DNA from: Candidatus Lokiarchaeum ossiferum
Lineage (GTDB): Archaea > Asgardarchaeota > Lokiarchaeia > Sigyniarchaeales > Promethearchaeaceae
Direction of reading: 5' to 3'
Length of the DNA stretch: 32,000 nucleotides
NCBI GenBank assembly: GCA_025839675.1
Contig: CP104013.1
Span: 2,580,001-2,612,000 of the forward strand
Shown: positions 179-31,007 of the stretch, piece after piece
Layout: every line of letters starts with the position of its first letter
Position numbering within the stretch: the stretch's first letter is position 1
Made by a program: the position numbers and the translations under genes
Notes under the pieces: model-generated
Seen by the model: only the letters and a program-made list of their open reading frames with translations
Told to the model about the DNA's origin: nothing
The model's database searches: none

Positions 179-1342
179 TTATAGTTTAGGCATTTTATTT
201 TGAGTTTTTGTTTTTTTTCTGAGGAAGAGAATTATGGAAAGAAGGGAGATCCCTAAAAAGATGAAACCAAACGATATTGTTCCATTTTCATCACTTTCAG
301 AACTAAAATCAGTAGAAAGAGGTTCCCATTTAGAGTCTGTAGAATCATAGGACCATAAATCCCCATAGTTCACACTATAGTCTTCTCCAAGCCCTCCAAA
401 TAGGTAAGTTTTATTGGTTGACGAAGCAAAAGCCATGGCATGTCCGGTTCGGGGGGATGGAGTGCTATCGGGAGAGAATTCAGTCCAAGTTGAAGAGGAA
501 GATCCATTGAAACACCATGTATCCCCCAAAGCTCGAATAGGGGATTCTTCATTATCACCTCCAAACAGGAGGCTTTGACCCAAATGAGAATCAAATACCA
601 TAGAAAACCAATATCGGCTTAAAGGAGTTGTATTAGGAGACTTTTTTTGCCAAGTACCTTCTGTAAGATTCAAACTCCATGTTTCACTAGACAGACCAGA
701 GACACGCCCTCCAAAAAGTATTCCTAATTTAGCATTGGTATCGTATACCATAGCATGGCCATAACGAGCTTGGGGTGGAGTATTTGTGGTTAATTGCACC
801 CAATTTTCAGTCTGTGGATTAAAAATCCATGTTGCATCCTTAAGAACAAAATTGGGATCAACGTGACCTCCATAAATAACAATTTTTTGTTCGTTTTCAT
901 CATAATGCATAGAGAAATCAGCCAAATTTGGTGGAGAATTTTCGGGTGATAATTTTGTCCAAGCGTTAGAAGAAGGATCAAAAGCCCATGTTTCACCTCC
1001 ACCAAAATAAATGACCCGATTTGTGGATGGATCGTAGACCATTCCAGAATTTTCTTGAATTCTTGGAACGATTGGAGTATTTATAGGAGTCCAAGTATTA
1101 TTGGATAGATGATAAAGCCACGTAGAATAATCTGGAGAACTACTTGCCATAGTTCGACTTCCGAAAAGAATTAGTTGATTTTGAATAGGATCGAAGACCA
1201 TGGAATGGGCATACAGAAGAGAAGGTCCATCATTAGAAGATGAGGAATAACCAAGCGAAGGAAAACTTATCAAACCGAAAATGAAAATAAAAAAAGCAAA
1301 TTTAAGTTTGAAGTCGCGGTGAACTTTTAATTTTGACGACAT
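179..1342 (-). CDS. Surface-anchored Kelch-repeat (six-bladed beta-propeller) protein
   Basis: 387-aa ORF with an ATG start. N-terminal hydrophobic signal/anchor (FAFFIFIFGLISFPSLG). Six repeats each end in a hydrophobic-FGG/YGG motif (LILFGS, VIYFGG, IVIYGG, GILFGG, SLLFGG, TYLFGG), with W-containing strands (TW..L, AWTKL, NWVQL, TWQKK, TWTEF, KWEPL). C-terminal TM helix plus basic tail (ISFGFIFLGISLLSIILFLRKKTK). Confidence 0.8.
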   Translation of the reverse strand: MSSKLKVHRDFKLKFAFFIFIFGLISFPSLGYSSSSNDGPSLLYAHSMVFDPIQNQLILFGSRTMASSSPDYSTWLYHLSNNTWTPINTPIVPRIQENSGMVYDPSTNRVIYFGGGETWAFDPSSNAWTKLSPENSPPNLADFSMHYDENEQKIVIYGGHVDPNFVLKDATWIFNPQTENWVQLTTNTPPQARYGHAMVYDTNAKLGILFGGRVSGLSSETWSLNLTEGTWQKKSPNTTPLSRYWFSMVFDSHLGQSLLFGGDNEESPIRALGDTWCFNGSSSSTWTEFSPDSTPSPRTGHAMAFASSTNKTYLFGGLGEDYSVNYGDLWSYDSTDSKWEPLSTDFSSESDENGTISFGFIFLGISLLSIILFLRKKTKTQNKMPKL

Positions 1343-3948: not shown

Positions 3949-5898
3949 ATGAATCCAAAATTACTTTTAACAGCGGTTTTCGGCCCATATGGTGTGAAAA
4001 ATGCTTATGCTGAAGGCATAGGAATGCAGATGGAATTATTAAACAATCAAATCACACGTCAACAGGGAATTCACTCCCCACGGCAAAATTACTGGACTTT
4101 TGCACTATATTTATTAGCTGAAAATATCTCGACACCGACCACAGTCTTAGATTTTCCTAAATGGAAAGATTTTACACACGAGTTAAATACTAACCATTAT
4201 ACACATGTAGGAATAAATTTTATAGTCCCCAATGTTCTAAAAGCCAAGCGGATGACCGAATATATTCGGAAGCATCATCCTAAGATCAAGATTATCTTGG
4301 GAGGATACGGTACTACCATACCAAACTTAGAAAAAATGGTGCCCCACGATGAATTATGCATCGGTGAAGGAGTACGCTGGATGCAAAAATATTTTGGAGA
4401 AGAGGATCGACTAACCCAACCTGTTATCCATCCTGTTATTCAAAATCCCATATCGCAAAGAGTCTACGGTTATAGATCCGTCCCGAGAGCAGCAGTATTA
4501 TTACCTGGATTGGGATGTGAAAATGGATGCGAATTCTGTGCAACATCTCATATGTTTAATAAGAAATATGAACCCTTACTTGCAAATGGACAGGAATGTT
4601 TTGAAGCTTGTCTCAAGGCAGAAACTAAAATGAAAGCATCAGGTTTTTCAATCATGGATGAAAATTTTCTAAAACAACCCAATACAGCTCGAGATTTGTT
4701 GAAGGCTATGGAAAGTAATATGAAGAATTATGCTTTTGAGATTTTTTCATCGGCAGAAACAATTACAAGCCTAGGAATCGATTTTTTGGTTCGTCTTGGA
4801 GTCAAAATGGTATGGATTGGAGTGGAATCCAAAAAATGGGCACATAACAAAGTAAAAAATGTTGATTTTACCGAATTGTTTGCGAAATTACAAAATAACG
4901 GTATTACAGTCAATTCTTCAGCCATTCTTTTCCTCGAACATCATGATGAGAAATCATTACAAGAAGATATTGACTGGGTAATTAGTTTGGGGGCGGATCT
5001 CACCCAATTTATGAACTATACCCCACTTCCCAACACAACTCTCTACAAACGTTTGAAGGAAACTTCAAAGCTTAAAAGTCAAGAAGAAGTTCCGTATGCA
5101 CAATACCATGGCGCGGCCGAATTAAATTGGATTCATCCCCATATTAATGATCCTAAGAAGCATTTTGAATATTTGAGACAGGCGTTTCGTAAAAAATATC
5201 TGACTAATGGGTCTGGCATTTTAAATATGACCATCACATCTCTTTTAGGATTGAAATCAGCACGAAAAGATTTTGCATATCGTGAAGAAAATGGAATCAA
5301 TTGGAATCCAATAACCCTAAAATATGAAAAATCTGACTCACCTCACCATGATGCTTACTTTAAATATCGGTTACGGAAGATTGAACGCGTAGCCATGATT
5401 AGTCGTCCTATGTTGCTTCCTTTATATTTACTTGCACCCAATAAATCTATTCGGAACAAAACAAAAGCCGCCTTGAGATTAGCACGAGAGACTTTAGGTA
5501 AACCAACGATTCAGGAGAGAATAAAATCCTTTGCTCTTGTGATTTTTGCTCTAATTGAAGGTATTAAATTCACATTCATGAAAATTCGAGGGAAGGAATC
5601 CATCATCTATCAACCGAAAGCGCGAAAAGTTGATTATAATATGGAATCTCATACCGTGCTCGCAATTGTTAAGCATCAAATTAAAAAGTGGGTGAGATTA
5701 GATAAGCCTTACCACTGGGTGCAGGATCAATTGAGAACAATTCCAAGCAAAGCAGAATTGTTGAGAAAAATCCAAAATTATTCCAAATTCAAAAAAACAA
5801 ACCTTTCATTATCAAAAATGCAAGAATGTTGGGTTCAAATGATTTCTAAACAGGATTATATTCAAAATTATTGGATAAACGAAGGAGGCAAAGTTTAG
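3949..5898 (+). CDS. B12-binding (class B) radical SAM enzyme with a long C-terminal extension
   Basis: 649-aa ORF. The N-terminal Rossmann-like cobalamin-binding region ends in KIKIILGGYGTT. The canonical CxxxCxxC cluster motif is CENGCEFC (C190/C194/C197, nt 4516-4539). About 200 further residues include a hydrophobic segment (FALVIFALIEGIKFTF). Confidence 0.85.
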   Translation: MNPKLLLTAVFGPYGVKNAYAEGIGMQMELLNNQITRQQGIHSPRQNYWTFALYLLAENISTPTTVLDFPKWKDFTHELNTNHYTHVGINFIVPNVLKAKRMTEYIRKHHPKIKIILGGYGTTIPNLEKMVPHDELCIGEGVRWMQKYFGEEDRLTQPVIHPVIQNPISQRVYGYRSVPRAAVLLPGLGCENGCEFCATSHMFNKKYEPLLANGQECFEACLKAETKMKASGFSIMDENFLKQPNTARDLLKAMESNMKNYAFEIFSSAETITSLGIDFLVRLGVKMVWIGVESKKWAHNKVKNVDFTELFAKLQNNGITVNSSAILFLEHHDEKSLQEDIDWVISLGADLTQFMNYTPLPNTTLYKRLKETSKLKSQEEVPYAQYHGAAELNWIHPHINDPKKHFEYLRQAFRKKYLTNGSGILNMTITSLLGLKSARKDFAYREENGINWNPITLKYEKSDSPHHDAYFKYRLRKIERVAMISRPMLLPLYLLAPNKSIRNKTKAALRLARETLGKPTIQERIKSFALVIFALIEGIKFTFMKIRGKESIIYQPKARKVDYNMESHTVLAIVKHQIKKWVRLDKPYHWVQDQLRTIPSKAELLRKIQNYSKFKKTNLSLSKMQECWVQMISKQDYIQNYWINEGGKV

Positions 5899-8279: not shown

Positions 8280-9209
8280 TTATGCTTGATACGTTTGCAT
8301 CATTAATGATTTTCTAAAAACAGTATAAATCGTTGATCTATAGATAGTATTTTTAAATCCCACAGGCATTAGCTGTTTGATGGGGCCAATAATTTTCTCA
8401 TTGATGGTTTGCTGGGAAAATTTCCCTTCCTTATCGATATTAGGATCAAATTTGTGAAGAAATATATCCATTTCAAAGGTTTGTGAAAATTGGTCCAAAC
8501 TTCCAATGATCTCGCTCAAATAAGAAATAGATTCAGCATATCGTTTATCATTTTGGACATCGATGACATAGATTATTTTATCAAAGCCTCTGATAACAGA
8601 AATAGGATCTTTTTTAAATTCTTCACGAAAGACTACTTGACCGCCATATTCAAAGTATATTGAATCAGGTTGGATTTTTGTCTCCAAATTCATATCAGAG
8701 AGAATTTCGGACATATGTTTCTTCCCATTTGTTGCTTTGAGATTTTGGTTCATATAAGCCATCAAATTTTTGTTTCCTAAGAAGCTAAGGAGAATTGAAG
8801 TTTTTCCACTACTATCAAGTCCCATGAGTAGTACTTTTTTTCCTTTCATGCCTTTTTTTGCAGAAACAACATCAGATGTAGAAAGATAAGAACTTACGGA
8901 CTCTAACATATCAAAAATCTGTCGATCTCGGATTTTATAAAATTTTTGCGTACCTTCTTTTCGATATGTTACCAAGTTGGAGTTAGATAAACTTTTTAAT
9001 TGCTGCGATGTAGTGGAATGGCTTTTTCCAGTAATTTTTTCAATATCACTGACAGTCAGCGGACCAGATCGAAGAGATTGAAGAATTGCCATTCTAGTAT
9101 CATCGGCAATTGCCTTCAAGACATTCATATATGTGAATTTATTTTCCATTTTAGTACTCTCAACGGGTAATTTTTCTTTCTTATATATGTTTAAAAGAAG
9201 CTCAAACAT
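8280..9209 (-). CDS. ArsR-family winged-HTH fused to a Rag/Gtr1-like small GTPase domain
   Basis: 309-aa ORF with ATG at 9209 (alternative ATG at 9149). The wHTH is ADDTRMAILQSLRSGPLTVSDIEKITGKSHSTTSQQLKSLSNSNLV. GTPase motifs: G1 GLDSSGKT (nt 8799-8822), G3-like FEYGGQ, and G4 in the Rag-type HKxD form (FLHKFD). KKVLLMG, IIYVIDVQN and YRSTIY resemble RagA as I recall it. Confidence 0.75.
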   Translation of the reverse strand: MFELLLNIYKKEKLPVESTKMENKFTYMNVLKAIADDTRMAILQSLRSGPLTVSDIEKITGKSHSTTSQQLKSLSNSNLVTYRKEGTQKFYKIRDRQIFDMLESVSSYLSTSDVVSAKKGMKGKKVLLMGLDSSGKTSILLSFLGNKNLMAYMNQNLKATNGKKHMSEILSDMNLETKIQPDSIYFEYGGQVVFREEFKKDPISVIRGFDKIIYVIDVQNDKRYAESISYLSEIIGSLDQFSQTFEMDIFLHKFDPNIDKEGKFSQQTINEKIIGPIKQLMPVGFKNTIYRSTIYTVFRKSLMMQTYQA

Positions 9210-17405: not shown

Positions 17406-19457
17406 GTGAAAAAAAATATGAAGGTAAAAAATTTCTCATTTTTTTTGATGGGACTGTTGGTATTTAATGTCGCTGCAATGGTTGGTTTAAATTATGCGGC
17501 AGCTTCCATGAATCCAGCGATTCCGGATTATGAACCAATGTCTGTTTCTGAAAAACTACTCCACAACGATATGTCACAATTGATTAATCCAAGTGATGTT
17601 GTTGGAGAAGATTCAGATTCTGGTTCTGAAACCGTTGTAGAAGAAGCCATTGTTGGTGAAGTCAAATACTTCCTAAGTTATGATGATGTAAACGGTATGT
17701 TTGTTGATGCATATCAGTTACAAGCCGCAGGACCTCTCACCGAAATATGGGTTCAATTAGATATGACATATCCTGAAGGTGATCCTCGAGAAGATCCCGT
17801 TGTAACCCAAGAACAATTAGACTATCTTTTAAATGAATTTGAAAGCAATATCTATCCAATAGATACGACGTATTTTGGGACTCCTGACGAACATACTGGC
17901 GAAGCAGCACCTTTAGCAGGTATGCTTGGACTTCCAGAAGATTATTATCTTAGCAATGAAGGTAAAATTATTATTCAAATCTCCAACATTCGAGATACCG
18001 CATATTATGATTATACATATCCATCATATATTGCCGGTTTCTACTGGGGAACTTATGAATATTACTTCAATCGAAATATTATCAATATTGATTCCAGTGA
18101 TTGGGAAAATCGAGTGGGACCAGATGTAGCCCGACCATTTTTATATGAAGGTACAATTGCTCACGAACTCCAACACTTAATTCATGCAGATTATAATCCT
18201 GCTGATGACACCTTTATGAATGAAGGATGTTCTATGTACTCCGAACCACTTTGTGGGTATGGATACTCGTGGGGTCGAATGGGAGATTACTTTGCAACTC
18301 CAGATAACAGTTTAACCAATTGGGAAGATCAAGGTGGTCTCAATGTGTTAGCTGATTATGGATGTGCCCAATTATGGACCGTCTATTTAGCAGATCATTA
18401 TGGTGGTGCAGCATTTATAAGCCACTTTGTCCAAGCAGGAATTGGTGGAATCGAGGGGATTAATGCAGCCTTGGCTTACTTTAATTATACCATCACCTTT
18501 GATGATATCTATCGAGACTGGAGAATTGCTAATATGCTTGATTTAGATGATAGTGTCTATGGATACCCATCAATAGATTTTGATGAAGTAGACAATCCAC
18601 TTCGAATTTATAATGTTTCTACACCCGTTGCAGATTTGTTAGGTACCGATTTTGGCACCACAACAGGTTATGGGGGAGATTCAGGTATTTCTAAACTCGG
18701 ATCTTATGGAAGCGATTATATTAAATTTACTCCAGGAGATTACAATTTCTTTGATATCTTCGCATTTGATGGAGATGACACCGCTGAATATGGTTGGGAA
18801 TTAACCGAAGATGGATGGTATTCTGGAGCAGCAGCATTATATGATGTTTCCTTAATTAGCACAGCAACAGTAGATACTGCAGACCCATACTTGCGATTAG
18901 ACTCTATGTGGTCTATTGAAGATTACTGGGACTTTGGATTCGTGCAAATTTCTACCGATAATGGAGAAACTTGGACCTCTTTAGCCAATGAAAACACTAC
19001 CACTGATTTTGATCCAAGTGGTCACCCAGATATTCAAGCCAATTTACCAGGTTTAACCGGAACTGGTGATGGAATCATTGAATTTGATCTATCCGCTTAT
19101 GCAGGGCAAGAAGTTATGTTATCTTTCCGATACATGACTGATTGGGGTACTGAATTTGCGGGTTGGATTATCCGAAGCGCAAGTGTCAGTGGAGTAGAAA
19201 TTGAACTCGTAAATGTACAACCTGAAGCCGAATTCTTAGTTACCATTGTAGAAGTATACAATTGGTGTGGAGAAGACTACTATTACATCTATGATTTAAA
19301 TCTCTATGATGCCTACGAAACTGGATTTGGAATTACTGCTGCTGATGAATATTATATGATCGTCTCGCCAACTATGGAAAATGGTATGGTGGATTACGAG
19401 ATCAACGTTCTCAGTTTCGGTATGAACTGTCACCGTTATCGACATATGCGTGTCTAA
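17406..19457 (+). CDS. Secreted zinc metalloprotease (MA-clan HExxH...NEG gluzincin-like) with an InhA-like C-terminal beta domain
   Basis: The ORF opens at GTG 17406; the probable start is ATG 17418. Signal peptide MKVKNFSFFLMGLLVFNVAAMVGLNYAAAS. Active site is HELQH (nt 18162-18176) followed 15 residues later by the E of NEGCSMYSE. The C-terminal FVQISTDNGETWTSL ... FDLSAYAGQEVMLSFRYMTD is typical of immune-inhibitor-A-type secreted proteases. Confidence 0.75.
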   Translation: MKKNMKVKNFSFFLMGLLVFNVAAMVGLNYAAASMNPAIPDYEPMSVSEKLLHNDMSQLINPSDVVGEDSDSGSETVVEEAIVGEVKYFLSYDDVNGMFVDAYQLQAAGPLTEIWVQLDMTYPEGDPREDPVVTQEQLDYLLNEFESNIYPIDTTYFGTPDEHTGEAAPLAGMLGLPEDYYLSNEGKIIIQISNIRDTAYYDYTYPSYIAGFYWGTYEYYFNRNIINIDSSDWENRVGPDVARPFLYEGTIAHELQHLIHADYNPADDTFMNEGCSMYSEPLCGYGYSWGRMGDYFATPDNSLTNWEDQGGLNVLADYGCAQLWTVYLADHYGGAAFISHFVQAGIGGIEGINAALAYFNYTITFDDIYRDWRIANMLDLDDSVYGYPSIDFDEVDNPLRIYNVSTPVADLLGTDFGTTTGYGGDSGISKLGSYGSDYIKFTPGDYNFFDIFAFDGDDTAEYGWELTEDGWYSGAAALYDVSLISTATVDTADPYLRLDSMWSIEDYWDFGFVQISTDNGETWTSLANENTTTDFDPSGHPDIQANLPGLTGTGDGIIEFDLSAYAGQEVMLSFRYMTDWGTEFAGWIIRSASVSGVEIELVNVQPEAEFLVTIVEVYNWCGEDYYYIYDLNLYDAYETGFGITAADEYYMIVSPTMENGMVDYEINVLSFGMNCHRYRHMRV

Positions 19458-20890: not shown

Positions 20891-21838
20891 TCAGTCATTA
20901 TTTTCTTTTTTTGGATGTTCTCGATAGAAGAAAAGTATTGAAATGATCACTACAGTAATGCCGATTAGATGAATCACTGTGAATTTTTCATTTAAAATAA
21001 TTAAAGCAAAAATAGAAGTCACTATAGGTGTCAAGGCATAAATTGTTGTTGATTTAGAGAGATCCATATATTGAAGCACTTTATACCAGCATATATGGAT
21101 TATTGAGTAAACAACTCCGGCAAGGAGTAAAGATAATAGATTTTGTAGATCCAATAATATGAAAATACTCCGATCTGGAAAAGCAATGACGTAAAAAATC
21201 CCAAGTACTAAGCTTCCTATAGCAGTGCGGGAGATTACAATTGTCATTGGGGGAGATTTTTGAACATCCATTAATTTTTTGGTGAAATAGTGGCCAAACA
21301 TCCAAAGGAGGGGTAAGAAAAATAACATTATAGCACCGATATTCATTTCAACAACTGCCGCAAAACCATTTGTAAGGGTAAAAAATAGACCAAACAATAA
21401 GGTAAGGGTGAAGACTAATTGCTGTTTAGTTACTTTTTCATGAAGTAAAACAACTCCAATTAGCATTGAAAAGATTAAACTTGATTTTAGAACAATTGAA
21501 CTTAGTATTGCACCTGCTATCGGTAATGCATAAAATTGTATGATTAGGGCTACAGCAAAGATAATACCAATAATGATATTGGATAAAATGATTTGATTTC
21601 TTGATAATTTCGTCTCAAGCTCGGTTGCATTTTCCATTAGATATAACTTATTTTTAAATTTTTTTCGTTCTGCAATCATTAAGGGAAAAATGAAAATTGA
21701 TTCAAAAATCATCGTAAACCATGCAAAATAGAATGCATCCAAGGCATCTGGTCGTAAATTAGTAACAACCGGTAAAAAACTTTCTGCAATGACACCAAAA
21801 GCCCCAAACATTAACCCTTTTTTTGTGTTTTTATTCAA
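20891..21838 (-). CDS. EamA/DMT-superfamily transporter (10 TM)
   Basis: 315-aa ORF from TTG at 21838, or ATG at 21811. Two five-helix halves typical of the drug/metabolite transporter family. Short charged C-terminal tail. Confidence 0.7.
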   Translation of the reverse strand: MNKNTKKGLMFGAFGVIAESFLPVVTNLRPDALDAFYFAWFTMIFESIFIFPLMIAERKKFKNKLYLMENATELETKLSRNQIILSNIIIGIIFAVALIIQFYALPIAGAILSSIVLKSSLIFSMLIGVVLLHEKVTKQQLVFTLTLLFGLFFTLTNGFAAVVEMNIGAIMLFFLPLLWMFGHYFTKKLMDVQKSPPMTIVISRTAIGSLVLGIFYVIAFPDRSIFILLDLQNLLSLLLAGVVYSIIHICWYKVLQYMDLSKSTTIYALTPIVTSIFALIILNEKFTVIHLIGITVVIISILFFYREHPKKENND

Positions 21839-21907
21839 GAAGTATCATGATTTTCAACCGTTGAAATATTTAAAATGATGGTAAAATGCACATTTTAAAT
21901 AGGGCAC

Positions 21908-24229
21908 TTACAGAAATTCAGACAAAACATGCTTTATGGAGTCAATGGTGTAAGGTTTATTCAAAACTTGTGAAAAACCATATTTTTTATAATTAGCAAG
22001 AATGGGATCATTCGAATAACCGCTTGAAACTATCGCGATAACATCAGGGTCAATTTTTTTAAGTTCGGATATTGTTTCTTTTCCTCCAATTCCTCCTGGA
22101 ATTGTGAGATCCATAATTACCAAACGATATTTTTCATTATTCTTTATTGAGTTTGCATATTTTCTTAACAATTCTTCACCATCATAAGCAATATCTACGG
22201 ACAAACCAAATTTTGTAAGTATTTTGGATAATATCTTCAAGATCATGGGATCATCATCCATAATAATGACTTTACCTTGAAATTCCTGCTTTAAAGCAGA
22301 TTTCTTTAAATTGTTTCTTATTTCCTTTTCACTTATCGGGAGATAAATATGGAATGTCGTACCTATAGCCATTTGAGATTCAAATGTAATATAACCCCCA
22401 TGTCTTTTAATAATAGAATAACATGTTGCTAAACCTAAACCATTTCCCTTCTTTTTTGTAGTGAAATATGGTTCAAAAATATGTTGCTGAGTATCTAACG
22501 AAATACCTTCACCTTGATCTTTAATTGAAATATGGATATAATTCCCATCCGCTAATGGAACATCAACAGAATTCACCAATTCGATAACTTCAAGAGAGAT
22601 TAAAATAGTTCCCCCATCTATCATAGCTTGATTTGCATTAATTAGGAGATTATTAAAAACTTGATTCATTTGGCCAGCATCAACTTCGACTACAGGAATT
22701 TCCGAGTTCTTTTCCACTACGCATTTTGATTTTGATCCCCGCATTACAAATGAGAGCGATTCTTCAATAATCGAAAGAATATCGTGTGTTTTTTTCAGAG
22801 GTGCACCACCTTTTGAAAATGTTAGTAATTGTTTTGTCAGATCTGTTGCTCTTAAAGTTGCTTTTTCTATATCCCGCAATGAGTCTAACATTTCATTAGA
22901 AACATCATCTTCTAATTGCATGTAATTAACATTACCAAGTATTCCGACTAAAATATTATTGAAATCATGAGCAATTCCACCAGCCAGAAGAGCTATTGAT
23001 TCGATTTTTTGAGAGCGTAATTGTTCAGAATCTCGACGTTTTTGTTCAGAGATATCCCGAATTATTGCTTGAATGAATTTTTCACCATCCAATGAAATAA
23101 TACTAGCAGTTACATTAGATTCGAAGGTCTCACCGTTTTTTCTCTGCATTATTATTTCATAAAGACCACGGGAACCGCTTAGAAATTCATTCGTCAAGTT
23201 CTTTTGTAATATCTTCTTATCTGTAGGATGTAAATCATCAGTAACGAAACTTAATAATTCTTCTCGAGTATAACCAAATAAATTGAGAGCACTTTGGTTC
23301 GCCTCAATAATTTTCCCAGAAATTTCATGCAATATTATAGCATCACGAGAATTATTGAACAAATCATTATATTTTCGCTGGTTTTCTTGAATTATCTGAA
23401 GAGATTTTTTATACGCCGTGATATCTTGATGAATAACTACAATATTTTGCATCAAATTTTGATCATTCTTTATGGGAAAGACTATTGTCCTGAGCCAATG
23501 TATCTCTTTATTATTATTATTAAACATTCCCGGTTCTAATTTGAAATCAGGTATCTGAGTATAATTTCCATTAAAAGCTTCTTGAATATAAGGAAGCAAA
23601 GCTAACCTATCAAAAAGAGGTTCTTTCAGTAAATTAAATCTTCCAATAGCATTCTCTGGATCAATCCCCCAAAAAACTTGAAAATTCTTGTTAACTATTT
23701 GTAAATATCCTTTTGTGTCATAAATTTGAATGTCAAAGGGGGCTTGATCGATCAAATTTCGAAACCTTTCTTCGCTTTCAATCAAAGAAAATTCAACCTG
23801 CTTTCGTTCAGTAATATCGATAAGAGATCCAATCATGTAACAAGAATCATTTTGATCTATTATAAAAGCAAAACGATCTAAAAACCACCGATATCCTCCA
23901 TCTTTATGTCTTAATCGGATTTCAAGCTCACTGGAACGAGAAAAATTATTAAGATTTGTGCGAGTAAACTCAATAATGGACTCCATTTGATCCAAATCAT
24001 CAGGGTGAAAAATAGTTTTGGAAAAAGAGCGCCCGTCTTCTAAAAATTTATTTAAAGGCCACCCTAAGATTTCTTCAACAGAATTGCTTATATACACATA
24101 GGATGAACTGGTTAAATCAATTTTATATGAAATATCTTTTGAATACCTCAGAATTTCATATAGATTTTTTTGGTTTTCAAGCAATTTGTCAACAGACTGA
24201 TCTGGTAAATTTTGGTCTTGAAATGGCAT
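21908..24229 (-). CDS. Hybrid sensor histidine kinase: multiple PAS domains, HisKA, HATPase_c and a C-terminal receiver
   Basis: 773 aa. At least three PAS modules (..IDITERK, ..HQDITAYK, ..IRDISEQK endings). H-box GGIAHDFNNIL, N-box NLLINANQAM, G1 DQGEGIS, G2 GNGLGLATC. Receiver with MDDDPMI and the phospho-acceptor context LVIMDLTIPGG. Confidence 0.92.
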   Translation of the reverse strand: MPFQDQNLPDQSVDKLLENQKNLYEILRYSKDISYKIDLTSSSYVYISNSVEEILGWPLNKFLEDGRSFSKTIFHPDDLDQMESIIEFTRTNLNNFSRSSELEIRLRHKDGGYRWFLDRFAFIIDQNDSCYMIGSLIDITERKQVEFSLIESEERFRNLIDQAPFDIQIYDTKGYLQIVNKNFQVFWGIDPENAIGRFNLLKEPLFDRLALLPYIQEAFNGNYTQIPDFKLEPGMFNNNNKEIHWLRTIVFPIKNDQNLMQNIVVIHQDITAYKKSLQIIQENQRKYNDLFNNSRDAIILHEISGKIIEANQSALNLFGYTREELLSFVTDDLHPTDKKILQKNLTNEFLSGSRGLYEIIMQRKNGETFESNVTASIISLDGEKFIQAIIRDISEQKRRDSEQLRSQKIESIALLAGGIAHDFNNILVGILGNVNYMQLEDDVSNEMLDSLRDIEKATLRATDLTKQLLTFSKGGAPLKKTHDILSIIEESLSFVMRGSKSKCVVEKNSEIPVVEVDAGQMNQVFNNLLINANQAMIDGGTILISLEVIELVNSVDVPLADGNYIHISIKDQGEGISLDTQQHIFEPYFTTKKKGNGLGLATCYSIIKRHGGYITFESQMAIGTTFHIYLPISEKEIRNNLKKSALKQEFQGKVIIMDDDPMILKILSKILTKFGLSVDIAYDGEELLRKYANSIKNNEKYRLVIMDLTIPGGIGGKETISELKKIDPDVIAIVSSGYSNDPILANYKKYGFSQVLNKPYTIDSIKHVLSEFL

Positions 24230-25831: not shown

Positions 25832-27259
25832 TTATTGGCCTGTACTTGATAACAAAATAGACACTACGAGCCCTAAAAGAAGCAAAACTAATAGAATAAA
25901 ATAATATTTTGGTTTCCATTTTTTGATATACTTCCCATCGAGTGCAAATCCCTTGAATTCGCCCGGAAACATATTAAATGTCCCTAAAACGCAATTTAAG
26001 GATCCCCCTTGTAAGAAAATCATCTTCAAAGTAGATAAGGATCCGGGGAGTATGAGTGAAATTAGAATAAATACTAATCCAAGGATGAAATTTGAAGCGG
26101 GACCCGCAATTTTAATCGCCCCCATTTTATCTTTATCATCGTCAGGATCAACCCCAACAGATACGGCAGCTCCGGGTAAAGCGATTGGAATTCCAATTAT
26201 TGCAGAACGAAGGGTTGTTTTCATCCCTACAGTTGTTAAACAAAAACGACTTTGGAAATGAAAATGTTTCCCTGTCTGTAGATGAGCGGTTTCATGCACA
26301 ATAAAAGACAGAGAAAAGATTAAAGCAATAGGGAGAGGTTCAAAAAATATTGCAGATATGCCGATAAAGTATTGATATTGGATATAATAATATAAAGCAG
26401 TTAATCCCATAACATTAATATAAGAGTGATACACCATAATAAAAAGTAAACTAAAGGCAACAAGAATATGCCATGTTTCACTCTTTTCTAATTTATAGAC
26501 CATTCCCAAATCTAATCCAGAATCTGGACGAAAGGCATTTGGAGGAATAGGCATTTTTCTTTTGACTAAAATGAAACTATTGGAAGTAAAGGAAGGATCC
26601 TCTGGATCCATAAAAATTGCATTCCGTCTTCGATAAGCAGGAGCCATAGATGGATCATGAACTGGGGGAACGGTGGGTGCCTGGGTTGGATCAAAATAAA
26701 CTCCACCAGATGACGATTCTTCGCTAGGTGCCACCGTTGGAGATTGAGTAGGATCAGTGAAGGAATGATGCGAGCGTGAAGGAGGTGCCACAGTAGAAGC
26801 AATTGTGGGATCTTTGAATGGTTCTTCATTTAATTTTTCTACTTGACTTGAACCACTTCCATTTGGAGTGTTAATTGTAGTATCATGAAAAATAAGATCC
26901 ATTTGAATCAACGTACCGTTTTCTTCGACAGGTACAATAATTTTATCACCATTTTTCAAGAGTTGTGGGGTTGTTTGTTTTAAATTCAAGTTTCCCAGGT
27001 AAGTTCCATTCGTACTATTTAGATCCTCGATGTAATAACGATCTCCTCTTAAAGAAATAATAAATTGTTGTTTAACATAACTCCCGGTTTTTGGATCTTT
27101 TCGAACACTCGAAATAGCGGAAAATAGTGCGGGATCAACGCTAAGTGTTGCAGATTTTTTGATATCCTTCTTTCCTATGTGAAAAACGTGTTGATTTTGA
27201 GGGAGGAGAATTTTACCACCAATTTTGGGAATTTCCAGATAAATTTCGCGAACAACCAT
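25832..27259 (-). CDS. FHA domain fused through a Pro/Ser/Thr-rich linker to an M50 site-2 protease membrane domain
   Basis: 475 aa. FHA core is ISLRGDRYYIEDLNSTNGTYLGN...LKNGDKIIVP. The membrane half carries an intramembrane HETAH (nt 26282-26296), AGPASNF, and the second S2P motif NMFPGEFKGFALDG (N..P....LDG). Confidence 0.8.
   Translation of the reverse strand: MVVREIYLEIPKIGGKILLPQNQHVFHIGKKDIKKSATLSVDPALFSAISSVRKDPKTGSYVKQQFIISLRGDRYYIEDLNSTNGTYLGNLNLKQTTPQLLKNGDKIIVPVEENGTLIQMDLIFHDTTINTPNGSGSSQVEKLNEEPFKDPTIASTVAPPSRSHHSFTDPTQSPTVAPSEESSSGGVYFDPTQAPTVPPVHDPSMAPAYRRRNAIFMDPEDPSFTSNSFILVKRKMPIPPNAFRPDSGLDLGMVYKLEKSETWHILVAFSLLFIMVYHSYINVMGLTALYYYIQYQYFIGISAIFFEPLPIALIFSLSFIVHETAHLQTGKHFHFQSRFCLTTVGMKTTLRSAIIGIPIALPGAAVSVGVDPDDDKDKMGAIKIAGPASNFILGLVFILISLILPGSLSTLKMIFLQGGSLNCVLGTFNMFPGEFKGFALDGKYIKKWKPKYYFILLVLLLLGLVVSILLSSTGQ
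26660..26815 (-). repeat. Coding tandem repeat in the FHA-S2P linker (three DPTxxxTVxP units)
   Basis: The units are DPTIASTVAPP, DPTQSPTVAPS and DPTQAPTVPPV, spaced 18-21 residues apart (protein residues about 149-200). Confidence 0.7.
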
Positions 27260-27324: not shown

Positions 27325-28332
27325 TCAATAAATGCCCGTAACCACGCGGCGTCCAAATTTATTAAACATTAATTTCCCACCTAAAATACCCATTAGCTGT
27401 CCAACATAAGAAGCAGTTGAGATTCCGGTGAAAAATATACCTAAAATTGCAAATACAGAGGAATAAGCAATTAAAAAATAAAGAATATATTTCGCTTTGA
27501 GTTTAACGGGAATGAAATAGAGATACATTCGCATTTCTCGATTTAAACCAACAAGATGCAATAGGAAAGTCATCATGCCAAGAATAGCGCACCATTGAGT
27601 AGAAATCAAGAATAAATCCAACAATCTCCCGATAGAAAGTATCATTCCTAAAGATTGGACAAGCACTATTGATAAAACACCCAATCCACCGCAAGCTAAA
27701 TAAATGGTAGCCATGAATTTTGATCCAAATTGCATTTCAATGGATTTACCAATAGAATAGAGCATTAATTCAGCAAAAAGTAATCCAAAAATATCGCGAG
27801 GGGCAAACATAGATGTTATTAAAGTTGGAATTGCTAAAATACTTGAAAATAGATTTAATGTATTGAATAGAATATATGGTTCCAATATTGGAAAGAGCGT
27901 TAGGACGAAGAAAAACGCTGATAAGCCCATAAACGTATAGGTGACTTGCATCTTATTTGTCCGTGAAATAAATGGACTATAATTTTCACCAGTGGGACGA
28001 CTGCCTCTAGTAGGAGGAGGGGGCATAGCTTGACGTTCTTGAGCCCGGATATAATCGCGCATTTCCCGTTCCATTTGTTTTTCGGTATCTTCAGGAGTGG
28101 TATAGTTCGGAGTATTAAAATTATTTTGAGCGGGATTATAAGATTCTTCTGGCACTGAAGTAGTTGATGAAGCAACTGTCGTCCGAGCACGAGGGTTATC
28201 ATTCATAGAAAACGTACAATCATGATTTTCAGGTAATCGATGTAGTTTACAAAAAGTTCCGCCACAATATCGACATTTAAAAGGGAGATAAGTCAACGTT
28301 TCGTTGCAATCGGGAGTATCGCATTTAACCAT
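27325..28332 (-). CDS. AN1-type zinc finger fused to a rhomboid-fold six-TM domain that lacks recognisable catalytic residues
   Basis: 335 aa with a GAGGA RBS. The AN1 pattern is C-x4-C-x10-C-x2-C-x4-C-x2-H-x5-H-x-C ([28 protein letters not shown]). The membrane part matches the rhomboid TM2-3 core (LITSMF...[28 protein letters not shown]). The HxxxN, GxSG and TM6 His positions read GLLFAE, TQWC and SYVGQ instead. Confidence 0.7.
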
Positions 28333-28491: not shown

Positions 28492-30486
28492 TCAGTTGAT
28501 TCCTTCGATTAATTGATTCACAAGGAATTTATCAGGCGTGTAGACACCACGGAAATGTTGATAAATTAAATTGAAGATTTCTTGTTTTTTGGAAGATTTC
28601 CCACTTTTTTTAAAACTAGTAAAGTCCATTTTCTTTAAAAAATGAGTTATTTTCTCGGTTAAAGCAATTTCACAATTTTTAACCATCGATTTATCAGCAA
28701 ACCACCATATATTTTCTTCATTTATAGAGAAAATTGGTAGTTTTTTCACCAACTCCATGAATTTCTCGAGATTCGCCATTGGAAATAGTCCTTGTTCGAA
28801 TAAAAATTCATCAATTAAATTAGAAATCCAAATGAAAGAAGTAGGTTCCCCGCGATGAAAGAGAATTTTTTGGATACAAGTGGAAATTTTGTTAATTATT
28901 TGTTCATCTGAAAATTTTTTCTGAGAATTTTCCCTTTGAGTTAAATAATCTTCATGATTTTTAGGTTTTTGAAATCGAATATAATAATCTCCAATAGGAG
29001 ATCCATTGTAATGAAGCATAGATTTAATTGAAACGCGAGGAGGAAGTTGGAATAAAATTTGTTTTAAAAGAAAAGAAGAATTTACGACAGAAGAAATTAA
29101 AGCATTACGAATTTTCAAAGAGGTGTTGTGAAAAGTAATTATCATAAAACGTTCAGGTTTTAAAACCCTATGCATTTCAGAGAATACTTGAGTAAGTCGG
29201 TCTTGATAAAAATCGATTTTTTTTCCTTGTTTTGAATTAATAACTATTTCTTCAGCTTCTATTTGTGAAATAAATTTTTCCATGTTCATATTGAGCCATG
29301 CACCCCAAAGAGATGATAGTTCCCCATATTGGATAGAATCCCCATAAGGTGGATCTGTAAATATAAAATCAATGGAAGCATCCGGAATGGGTAAAGAAGA
29401 GCTAGAAATATTGAGAAGGAAAACGGGAGTTTCAACAGATAACGTAGAGAACGAATCAGCTAAAGAGAATTTAAGAGATGATTGTAAGTTACGTTGATTT
29501 GAATCATTTTTACCTCGAAGAATCTTCTTGAATCGTTCGCAAAAACAATTCCACGGATTGACTTCAAAATATGAGGAGGGATCCCAAAAAAAATGATGAG
29601 TCCAAGAACCTACTTGTTTCTTTTTCAATTTCTTCCCGTTACGCTTATCGATCACCCACACCATTTTACTCGCTTGTCCAATAGCACTTGAAAACACAAA
29701 CATAAATATTTCAGAAAGATCTGTAAATGGAGTGGGCAAATTAATAATCAAATCTCTCAAATAAGTGAGGAAGACAAGGTTTCTTTTAGAAAAAAGCATA
29801 TCCAAACCATTATTAGACCGGAGATTATGACGGAGTTGTAAAAAGGGAACTTCATTTGTATACTTAAAATTAAAGAGAGGAGGATTAATTCGTTTAGTAT
29901 TTATCAAATTTTGCGCGAATTTTTCTCGTTCCAATATAGTTGTGAATGTTTTTTCTAAATATGAGGTATTTTGAGAAGAATTAACAATAATTTCTTTGCA
30001 CTTGGAGCATTGATAGCGGACTTCTTCAATTTCATCAACTTTTTCTAAACCATCATTTTTTCTTATTAAATGAGTCAAAATGGCAGATTGCCCACAAATA
30101 GGGCAATTAAATTGAAATAAATCATGATATAAAGAAGAGTTCTCCACTATTTGAGTTTGAAGAAATGTGAAGCAATCTTGCATCTTTTTTAGATCAACAC
30201 GGATTCCTGAATTTTTGCAAATAAACTGGGACATTGGATTAATATCAATCCCAATTGCCTTTCTTCCAGCAAAAATGGACTCTAAAACTGTAACTCCTGA
30301 TCCTAAAAATGGATCTAGAACGATCCCATTAAGCGGACAATACCGATTAATATATGAAGAAACAATGTTGGCAGGTTTTCTTGCCCAATACTTATGCATC
30401 AAATACATCGACGAATGAGTTTTTGGAAGAATGATATAATCTTGCTCTAAATCAGAAATTATATCTTCCTTTTTTTCATGGGCCAA
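28492..30486 (-). CDS. Zn-ribbon-containing DPPY methyltransferase (alpha-type order: motif X/I, insert, motif IV), probably N6-adenine DNA MTase
   Basis: 664 aa. TTG start at 30486, supported by an AGGAG RBS about 11 nt upstream. HKYWARKP plus the AdoMet motif DPFLGSG (nt 30295-30315). CxxC...CxxC ribbon (CPICGQ...CSKCKE). Catalytic motif FTDPPYG (DPPY at nt 29344-29355). The ~190-aa C-terminal region is unassigned. Confidence 0.75.
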   Translation of the reverse strand: MAHEKKEDIISDLEQDYIILPKTHSSMYLMHKYWARKPANIVSSYINRYCPLNGIVLDPFLGSGVTVLESIFAGRKAIGIDINPMSQFICKNSGIRVDLKKMQDCFTFLQTQIVENSSLYHDLFQFNCPICGQSAILTHLIRKNDGLEKVDEIEEVRYQCSKCKEIIVNSSQNTSYLEKTFTTILEREKFAQNLINTKRINPPLFNFKYTNEVPFLQLRHNLRSNNGLDMLFSKRNLVFLTYLRDLIINLPTPFTDLSEIFMFVFSSAIGQASKMVWVIDKRNGKKLKKKQVGSWTHHFFWDPSSYFEVNPWNCFCERFKKILRGKNDSNQRNLQSSLKFSLADSFSTLSVETPVFLLNISSSSLPIPDASIDFIFTDPPYGDSIQYGELSSLWGAWLNMNMEKFISQIEAEEIVINSKQGKKIDFYQDRLTQVFSEMHRVLKPERFMIITFHNTSLKIRNALISSVVNSSFLLKQILFQLPPRVSIKSMLHYNGSPIGDYYIRFQKPKNHEDYLTQRENSQKKFSDEQIINKISTCIQKILFHRGEPTSFIWISNLIDEFLFEQGLFPMANLEKFMELVKKLPIFSINEENIWWFADKSMVKNCEIALTEKITHFLKKMDFTSFKKSGKSSKKQEIFNLIYQHFRGVYTPDKFLVNQLIEGIN

Positions 30487-30560: not shown

Positions 30561-31007
30561 ATGTCCAGCCAAATTACTCGGGAATTTAACAAAGAAATGG
30601 CAGTCGCTCTGAATGCTAATGTCAAAGTAATCTTAGAAATTGATTATCCAACTCATTTTTACATTGGAAAAATGACTGGGTTTGAAATGGGGTCCCAATC
30701 CATTTGTTTAGCAAATGCAAAAGATGATAAAAACAACAAATATGATAAAATTGTTATCCAAGGGTCTAAATGGATTTCATTTACATTGGAAGGAGAACCT
30801 TTCCCAATGCAAGAACTCGCTGCTCGTTTGCGTAAAATATTACCTGGTGAAGCTATAGAAATAGCTGAAGATAACACAGTTACGTTATTGGGTGGTAAAA
30901 TTAAAATTAGTGAAAATGGAGTAGAAGGCAGAGGACCAACTAAAAATCGTGTCCAAACAGTATTCGATAACTTTCTTGCTGATTGGCGAGATTCCCATAA
31001 AAAATAA
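30561..31007 (+). CDS. Sm-fold (LSm-like) protein with a C-terminal extension
   Basis: 148 aa. The N-terminal ~85 aa fit the Sm1/Sm2 pattern (VKVILEIDYPTHFYIGKMTGFEMGSQSICLANAKD....KIVIQGSKWISFTL). A further ~60 aa have unknown fold. By-eye call. Confidence 0.5.
   Translation: MSSQITREFNKEMAVALNANVKVILEIDYPTHFYIGKMTGFEMGSQSICLANAKDDKNNKYDKIVIQGSKWISFTLEGEPFPMQELAARLRKILPGEAIEIAEDNTVTLLGGKIKISENGVEGRGPTKNRVQTVFDNFLADWRDSHKK

Follow-up and report, generated by a model that had tools for sequence, protein, structure and literature searches.

An AN1-fused rhomboid pseudoprotease of Candidatus Lokiarchaeum ossiferum and its conserved pairing with a site-2 protease gene

Introduction

Rhomboid pseudoproteases (Derlins, iRhoms) are central in eukaryotic membrane-protein degradation and signalling, and they are usually discussed as eukaryotic inventions. 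In these proteins, as in the active rhomboids, the rhomboid fold engages the transmembrane segments of clients. In eukaryotes, the AN1 zinc fingers of ZFAND/Cuz1 proteins have links with Cdc48 and the proteasome, and in archaea an AN1-rhomboid architecture has been reported for RhoII of Haloferax volcanii. One proposal derives Der1/Dfm1 from a bacterial symbiont (PMC2691004), and in Bacillus subtilis the rhomboid YqgP, which carries a metal-binding cytosolic N-terminal domain, is an adaptor for the membrane metalloprotease FtsH independently of its catalysis (PMC7231995). Here, a window of 32,000 nucleotides (nt) from the Asgard archaeon Candidatus Lokiarchaeum ossiferum (contig CP104013.1, positions 2,580,001 to 2,612,000; positions below are those of the window unless a locus is named) was analysed for a gene encoding an AN1 zinc finger fused to a rhomboid-fold membrane domain, referred to below as the pseudo-rhomboid. 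A preliminary description of the window had presented this protein as an apparently catalytically dead AN1-rhomboid resembling Derlins and iRhoms. The analysis showed that it belongs to a conserved family without catalytic residues, and that the gene lies beside an intact site-2 protease (S2P) gene of the Peptidase_M50 (M50) family at all loci that could be assessed. This invariant neighbour, which was absent from the preliminary description, is the strongest functional clue. With moderate confidence, we regard the pseudo-rhomboid as a non-catalytic adaptor or regulator of the neighbouring intramembrane metalloprotease, maintained by selection as a family of single origin.

Rhomboid fold and loss of the catalytic residues

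Pfam Rhomboid (PF01694) matched aa (amino acids) 170-322 of the protein with an E-value of 2.2e-6, scoring 28.3 bits where the gathering threshold is 22.6, and it also matched 47 of 57 relatives. In profile-profile alignment via hhalign, the family profile matched the active bacterial-type rhomboids with 100% probability (E 7.6e-39) and the active archaeal AN1-rhomboids with 99.4% probability (E 1.3e-21). An AlphaFold2 (AF2) model, for which an alignment of 57 homologues served as input, had a mean predicted local distance difference test score (pLDDT) of 84, with values above 90 across most of the membrane domain. The modelled architecture consists of a small N-terminal finger, a disordered linker and six transmembrane helices (TM1 to TM6), with a short hairpin at 266-279. 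When the model was searched against the PDB with Foldseek, GlpG structures took the top 31 hits (TM-scores of 0.56-0.68, target-normalised). The first hit of another kind was human Derlin-1 (rank 32); iRhom1/2 came after it, and yeast Der1 was ranked 40th. The rhomboid fold put forward in the preliminary description is therefore well founded; the opposite case considered there, a membrane domain outside the rhomboid superfamily, disagrees with Pfam, hhalign and Foldseek alike. No NCBIfam model matched the protein. TMEM115/DUF1751 (PF08551) remained below its cut-off (13.7 versus 22 bits), and since active AN1-rhomboids give weak matches to it too, this reflects clan-level similarity only.

The catalytic columns were read from two MAFFT alignments including Escherichia coli GlpG (about 105 homologues and 214 membrane domains) and from one profile-profile alignment with hhalign. 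All three agree on every catalytic column of the Lokiarchaeum protein (Table 1), and they concur with the residues listed earlier: HxxxN reads GLLFAE, GxSG reads TQWC and the TM6 His is lost, while GxxxG (G315 and G319) is kept. The structural Glu of GlpG (E166) is also retained, as E199. With every catalytic and oxyanion position replaced, the protein does not qualify as an active rhomboid protease (MEROPS S54) and is confirmed as catalytically dead as far as aligned residues can tell. The change of the loop-1 WR to PT had been noted as a further sign of inactivity; the substitution itself was read correctly, but it is not diagnostic, as the active archaeal AN1-rhomboids of this alignment also lack the Arg (W-T, W-G). 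The preliminary description had also pointed to S244 or S233 with H259 as residues that might fall on the catalytic columns. They do not, and as alternative dyads they were rejected, because the residues are not conserved; the membrane domain has no His besides H259, and close relatives carry Tyr at this position.

The loss extends to the whole family. Among 122 members, the His150 column never contains His and the Asn of HxxxN (N154 column) was found in seven. The His254 column is likewise devoid of His and holds Asp in 47 members, Gln in 28, Ser in 13, Asn in 11 and Glu in 9; in 112/122 the residue at this position is polar, being Asp, Gln, Ser, Asn, Glu or Thr, which fits a maintained polar cavity. 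The Ser201 column contains Ser (31), Trp (29), Asn (22), Thr (14) and others, and Ser and His never occur together. The structural Glu is kept in 121 members and G257 in 108. In the same alignment, all catalytic residues were present in 20/20 active AN1-rhomboids and in 70/71 bacterial-type rhomboids, the sole exception (P0172) being an AN1-bearing member of the pseudo-rhomboid family.

Extent, origin and selection of the family

A word-indexed search recovered 139 relatives of the Lokiarchaeum protein. When 1.84 billion representatives were scanned with a hidden Markov model (HMM) of the membrane domain only, 8315 matches to the rhomboid superfamily were obtained; approximately 68 of the best (E < 1e-23) make up the pseudo-rhomboid family, and active bacterial-type rhomboids come next. 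All source names attached to members are Asgard, including Promethearchaeota/Lokiarchaeota, metagenome-assembled genomes labelled Heimdall, Thor or Hod, and the cultured Promethearchaeum syntrophicum MK-D1, so the family is Asgard-specific as far as its sources carry names. In a crude neighbour-joining tree, computed with a capped distance correction and without eukaryotic sequences, 65 non-redundant members and P0172 formed one clade in 100/100 bootstraps.

Ratios of nonsynonymous to synonymous substitution rates (dN/dS) were 0.09-0.24 in six pairs, indicating purifying selection. The lowest value was that against the 97%-identical orthologue of L. ossiferum. A second L. ossiferum assembly matches the DNA of the window at 97.4% identity in the same gene order. 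A decaying pseudogene was ruled out by these ratios together with conservation down to 25% identity. Given the family-wide loss, the single clade, the purifying selection and the Asgard-only names, the catalytic loss is therefore old and single, and the protein was retained afterwards. What had been described as a dead AN1-rhomboid thus turns out to be a conserved, selected pseudoenzyme in an Asgard genome. Members are named in databases either 'AN1-type zinc finger domain-containing protein' or 'rhomboid family intramembrane serine protease', the latter being the annotation of the 97%-identical L. ossiferum protein; as to activity this second name is wrong.

The kinship with Derlins and iRhoms suggested earlier was not borne out. 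Pfam DER1 (PF04511) matched 0/57 members at E<=1, and a search of the PDB sequences with the family profile found GlpG (E 6e-5) and no Derlin. Sequences for a Derlin-1 profile were gathered with a human query that agreed at 99% identity with Derlin-1 in the database. Against this profile, shallow and built from 25 vertebrate sequences only, the hhalign probability was 4.8% (E 8e-3) for the family and 67.5% for active bacterial-type rhomboids. Derlin kinship was rejected on these three results, which with so shallow a profile do not prove its absence but give no hint of a special relationship, and in the structural ranking GlpG likewise precedes Derlin-1 and Der1. The hallmarks of iRhoms are absent from the Lokiarchaeum protein, which has no large iRhom homology domain (loop 1 is about 35 residues) and TQWC instead of GPxG. 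A rhomboid fold without the Ser-His dyad is a feature of all rhomboid pseudoproteases rather than of Derlins specifically; 'Derlin-like' is only an analogy of kind.

Conserved pairing with a site-2 protease gene

Directly downstream of the pseudo-rhomboid gene, on the same strand, lies a gene for an S2P with an FHA domain (FHA-M50), 100% identical to L. ossiferum NEF87_002177. Pfam identified the FHA domain (E 1.6e-9) and Peptidase_M50 (E 2.2e-8; 34.2 bits versus a cut-off of 27.2), and Foldseek matched the AF2 model to FHA domains and to the Methanocaldococcus jannaschii S2P 3b4r_A over 217 columns. The active-site motifs HExxH and NxxP..LDG are retained in all complete partner proteins; in the partner alignment HExxH, N429, P432, D441 and G442 are invariant. 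The FHA domain is matched by fold and profile, with Gly-Lys (G29, K30) in place of the usual Gly-Arg and no obvious Ser-x-x-His position, so that it is a putative phosphopeptide binder at most. The FHA-M50 family comprises about 28 clusters, and those with names are all Promethearchaeota.

For a survey of the gene pair, scans of genomes and metagenomes were pooled and their open reading frames (ORFs) were scored with HMMs. An adjacent, co-oriented M50 gene was present in 25/25 distinct loci with enough flanking DNA, while six others were cut by contig ends. Starting instead from two further FHA-M50 proteins, a pseudo-rhomboid gene was found directly upstream of both, at gaps of 38 and 75 nt. 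In total, the pseudo-rhomboid is adjacent to and co-oriented with M50 in 27/27 assessable loci, and the pair is present in the two hosts available in culture (Ca. L. ossiferum and P. syntrophicum MK-D1). As controls, two loci of active AN1-rhomboids had no M50 neighbour, and two AN1-M50 loci (Bathyarchaeia, Jordarchaeaceae) had no rhomboid neighbour.

The gene order methyltransferase, AN1-pseudo-rhomboid, FHA-M50 is shared by L. ossiferum, P. syntrophicum MK-D1 and Harpocratesius (42-44% identity). Of the clades a, b and c, the last is the deepest (28-32% identity) and has the opposite order: the M50 gene is immediately upstream, and its product carries an AN1 finger instead of FHA. Since M50 is downstream in the clades of the Lokiarchaeum protein and upstream in the deep clade, the pair has outlived a rearrangement that changed its other neighbours. 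At one locus (L040) an inserted gene parts the methyltransferase from the pair, which itself is unsplit.

Several other genes recur around the pair. A 148-aa Lsm_C protein is encoded at most two genes away in both arrangements (L001-L006, L041). In clades a and b its gene lies upstream and points away from the pair, whereas in clade c it follows downstream in the same orientation; it is either a third functional partner or a case of very old block synteny. The methyltransferase (N6/N4 DNA methyltransferase, 664 aa), in which a Cys-rich zinc-ribbon insert interrupts the methylase motifs and which weakly matches the anti-phage family DUF1156, is encoded directly upstream of the pseudo-rhomboid gene in clades a and b and not in clade c. 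The two clade-c loci inspected (L005 2483..3151, L006 5997..6653) encode a cobW/MeaB-like GTPase of about 220 aa after the pseudo-rhomboid on the same strand, and in L014 and L035 an ORF of fitting size and place points to the same gene. AN1-M50 fusions occur in several archaeal lineages, namely Asgard clade c (L005 225..1322, L006 3878..4864), Bathyarchaeia and Jordarchaeaceae (P0110-P0119; L020, L021), and at L020 a PrsW-family protease is encoded about 3 kb away.

Proposed function and alternative explanations

As the pseudo-rhomboid adjoins an intact S2P in every Asgard archaeon examined, the two proteins probably work as a pair. Their physical or functional interaction, the direction of its effect (adaptor or inhibitor) and the ligands of the AN1 and FHA domains are inferred. 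The rhomboid fold would still interact with transmembrane helices inside a polar, membrane-embedded cavity but leave them uncut. By analogy with YqgP, which serves FtsH as a substrate adaptor independently of catalysis, the pseudo-rhomboid might recognise transmembrane clients and present them to the adjacent S2P, or alternatively gate access to it. Through their cytoplasmic modules (AN1 in the pseudo-rhomboid, FHA or AN1 in the S2P), the two proteins could be connected with a signal or a machine in the cytosol. As a matter of speculation, the linker helix and the Thr-rich linkers of both proteins are candidate sites of contact or regulation.

Several points weigh against this explanation. Adjacency is the sole evidence for the partnership. 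A T-run and an AT-rich stretch lie in the 65-nt intergenic gap of the window, and each gene of the pair may therefore have a promoter of its own. Because Lsm_C also stays within two genes in both arrangements, the linkage between the pseudo-rhomboid and M50 could in part go back to inherited synteny of the block and not to function. Roughly one member in four, mostly of clade c, retain Ser at the nucleophile position, and 47/122 have Asp in place of His; residual chemistry may persist in some of them, though the Lokiarchaeum protein has Trp and Gln there. The single origin, finally, was read from a tree of the simple kind described above.

The same adjacency would be expected of an inhibitory gatekeeper, in which the dead rhomboid keeps the S2P inactive until a signal arrives, e.g. 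phosphorylation sensed by FHA, much as the membrane proteins BofA and SpoIVFA hold SpoIVFB inactive in Bacillus. It is in keeping with this that the S2P has a regulatory FHA domain and that both proteins have Thr-rich linkers, yet no evidence separates inhibition from substrate presentation. The S2P of clade c bears AN1 and not FHA, so phospho-control is not a universal logic, and to our knowledge the known S2P inhibitors are not rhomboid-fold proteins. We consider a gatekeeper of this type unlikely. If the neighbourhood merely reflected inherited synteny, the protein could act in the membrane as a scaffold or chaperone and have nothing to do with the S2P, a case to which the persistence of Lsm_C in both arrangements and of the methyltransferase in clades a and b would lend support, as would a separate promoter in the intergenic region. 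Adjacency and co-orientation were, however, maintained in 27/27 loci down to 28% identity, despite an inversion of gene order and replaced flanks, and the insertion at L040 separates the methyltransferase and leaves the pair whole, which makes an independent function quite improbable. Retained proteolysis with unconventional residues is the least probable explanation and can nearly be dismissed: some members do combine Ser at the nucleophile with Asp at the His column, and Ser-Asp dyads occur in unrelated hydrolases, but the Lokiarchaeum protein has neither residue, the Ser column varies even within clade c (Ser, Thr, Phe, Trp, Tyr, Ile), HxxxN is missing in all members and H259 is not conserved.

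A Derlin-like dislocation factor has also to be weighed. Such a protein would thin the membrane, and a cytosolic unfoldase or proteasome recruited via AN1 would receive membrane proteins from it in a process resembling endoplasmic-reticulum-associated degradation (ERAD), possibly as an ancestor of Derlins. The rhomboid-fold pseudoprotease with a polar residue at the former His position is consistent with this, and its AN1 finger matches the solved Cuz1 finger 5ij4, from a protein group tied to Cdc48 and the proteasome. Cdc48-20S systems exist in archaea (PMC13328587), and the explanation is compatible with S2P pairing. Against it stand the lack of sequence affinity and the structural ranking, both given above. 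No SHP-like FxGxGxxL motif was seen by eye in the C-terminal tail ('...[16 protein letters not shown]'). Genes for Cdc48 or ubiquitin-like proteins, the search for which had been recommended in the preliminary description, and genes for the proteasome were found neither within the 32 kb window nor in the conserved neighbourhood of the pair at the inspected loci. In archaea AN1 occurs on active rhomboids, dead rhomboids and M50 proteases. Being fused to active enzymes as well, it appears to serve intramembrane proteases of archaea in general as a docking tag on the cytoplasmic side rather than to mark pseudoproteases, and a link of it to Cdc48 or the proteasome would rest only on the eukaryotic ZFAND/Cuz1 precedent. 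A Derlin-like working mode, in which transmembrane segments are bound and left uncut, is possible by analogy; the dislocation factor as a whole is doubtful.

An extension of the adaptor or regulator role favoured here would be an Asgard two-protein machine, in which the pseudo-rhomboid selects or unfolds clients for the S2P and AN1 docks to a Cdc48/proteasome-type or ubiquitin-like system; this stronger version we hold to be improbable at present. If true, it would amount to an archaeal ERAD-like pathway of membrane-protein quality control or signalling, and rhomboid pseudoproteases serving as protease or unfoldase adaptors would predate eukaryotes.

In the full-text literature, subscription-only papers aside, no Asgard or other prokaryotic AN1 pseudo-rhomboid and no rhomboid-S2P gene pair was found described. 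New here are the occurrence of a rhomboid pseudoprotease in another domain of life, the domain to which it is fused and the type of its partner. In the Asgard lineage, a rhomboid would have become, independently, the non-catalytic partner of a different protease. The fixed pair with an S2P offers a concrete two-gene system in two cultured hosts for probing how a pseudo-rhomboid may serve a membrane protease, and the naming of the several members annotated as intramembrane serine proteases can be corrected.

Features of the locus and other genes of the window

Coordinates are collected in Table 1. The AN1 finger claimed in the preliminary description is clearly supported, as its eight zinc ligands (C4, C9, C20, C23, C28, H31, H37, C39) are invariant or nearly so in 57 homologues. 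It resembles solved AN1 fingers, among them that of the yeast Cdc48-associated Cuz1, and its predicted cytoplasmic location follows from the N-in topology of six-helix rhomboids. The linker helix was modelled with pLDDT 87-93 within a disordered Thr/Pro-rich linker, and its motif E-x-E-M-R-x-Y-I-x-x-Q-E-R is common to clades a, b and c. The most conserved motif, between TM4 and TM5, corresponds to a beta hairpin at 266-279 in the AF2 model; its core FIPxxxK is also present in the nearest active bacterial-type rhomboids.

Table 1. Positions of the AN1 pseudo-rhomboid, its S2P partner and other features in the window
Feature	Position	Strand	Details
AN1 zinc finger and rhomboid-fold pseudoprotease, complete gene	27325..28332	minus	335 aa; ORF list, Pfam
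AN1-type zinc finger (aa 4-41), predicted cytoplasmic	28210..28323	minus	Pfam zf-AN1 (PF01428), E 8.4e-13
Conserved charged linker helix (aa 80-102, '[14 protein letters not shown]'), then PPPP motif	28027..28095	minus	AF2
Six-helix rhomboid-fold membrane domain (aa 125-335)	27328..27960	minus	AF2, Foldseek, hhalign
TM2 GLLFA in place of the HxxxN oxyanion motif	27772..27786	minus	GlpG H150 to G183, N154 to A187
TM4 TQWC in place of GxSG	27589..27600	minus	GlpG G199/S201/G202 to T245/W247/C248
Most conserved motif, between TM4 and TM5, '[19 protein letters not shown]'	27490..27546	minus	F273, I274, P275, K279 invariant or nearly so
TM6 GQLMGILGG, GxxxG kept	27376..27402	minus	GlpG A253-H254 to G311-Q312
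FHA and site-2 protease (Peptidase_M50)	25832..27259	minus	475 aa; starts 65 nt past the pseudo-rhomboid stop codon
HETAH zinc-binding/catalytic motif of the partner S2P	26282..26296	minus	Sequence read directly
NMFP...LDG motif of the partner S2P, with Asp as third zinc ligand	25934..25975	minus	Sequence read directly
Repeat-containing linker of FHA-M50 (aa ~149-205)	26645..26815	minus	Disordered, pLDDT ~30
N6/N4 DNA methyltransferase	28492..30486	minus	664 aa
Lsm_C protein	30561..31007	plus	148 aa
All-Kelch beta-propeller	179..1342	minus	387 aa
B12-binding radical-SAM protein	3949..5898	plus	649 aa
ArsR-type helix-turn-helix and Gtr1/RagA-like small GTPase	8280..9209	minus	309 aa; Pfam E 1e-17
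Protein with InhA-like MAM domain	17406..19457	plus	683 aa
PAS histidine-kinase/response-regulator	21908..24229		773 aa

The linker of the FHA-M50 protein contains three tandem 'DPT(I/Q)xxTVxP' repeats and a degenerate fourth. Such Thr-rich repeats beside FHA could be phosphorylation-dependent self-ligands.

Elsewhere in the window, the Rag-like (eukaryote-like) GTPase joined to a DNA-binding domain is unusual, and the Kelch protein strongly matches eukaryotic Kelch domains of the KLHDC2/KLHL20 type (E 7e-43). Identity between the two L. ossiferum assemblies falls from 97% to 87% over the PAS histidine-kinase gene (21679..24203 versus L001 10503..13008), where the second assembly contains an additional ORF of 90 aa and its kinase is longer (890 versus 773 aa); the sensor encoded here evolves fast locally. 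No Pfam match was obtained for three ORFs (170-225 aa) located between 12994 and 14995.

Comparison with known systems

The active archaeal AN1-rhomboids (P0088-P0109) share with the Lokiarchaeum protein the succession of N-terminal AN1, linker and six-helix rhomboid core. They differ from its family in that HxxxN, GxSG and AH are kept (20/20) and that no M50 neighbour was found in two loci. The AN1-Peptidase_M50 proteins of other archaea (P0110-P0119; Bathyarchaeia, Jordarchaeaceae) carry the same AN1 tag and are homologous to the clade-c partners but, unlike these, have no rhomboid-like neighbour. Bacterial-type rhomboids such as GlpG and YqgP provided the best structural and profile match (E 7.6e-39) and also contain FIPxxxK before TM5. 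They are active enzymes, however, and the partner of YqgP is the AAA protease FtsH, the two genes not being presented as a fixed pair in PMC7231995.

Among the eukaryotic pseudoproteases, the Derlins (Der1, Dfm1, Derlin-1) resemble the Lokiarchaeum protein in their rhomboid fold without the Ser-His dyad and are structural neighbours (7y4w_W, TM-score 0.53; 6vjz_C, TM-score 0.54). They lack an AN1 finger, are partnered with Hrd1 and Cdc48 rather than S2P, and no specific sequence relationship to them was detected. iRhom1/2, found as structural hits 9xy4_A and 8snl_B, differ from the Lokiarchaeum protein in having a seventh helix, an extended N-terminal tail and, on the luminal side, a large iRhom homology domain. 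In sequence they showed no close relationship to it, and their partner is a single-pass sheddase instead of an intramembrane protease. They are nevertheless comparable in that a dead rhomboid is the obligate partner of an active metalloprotease, in their case ADAM17.

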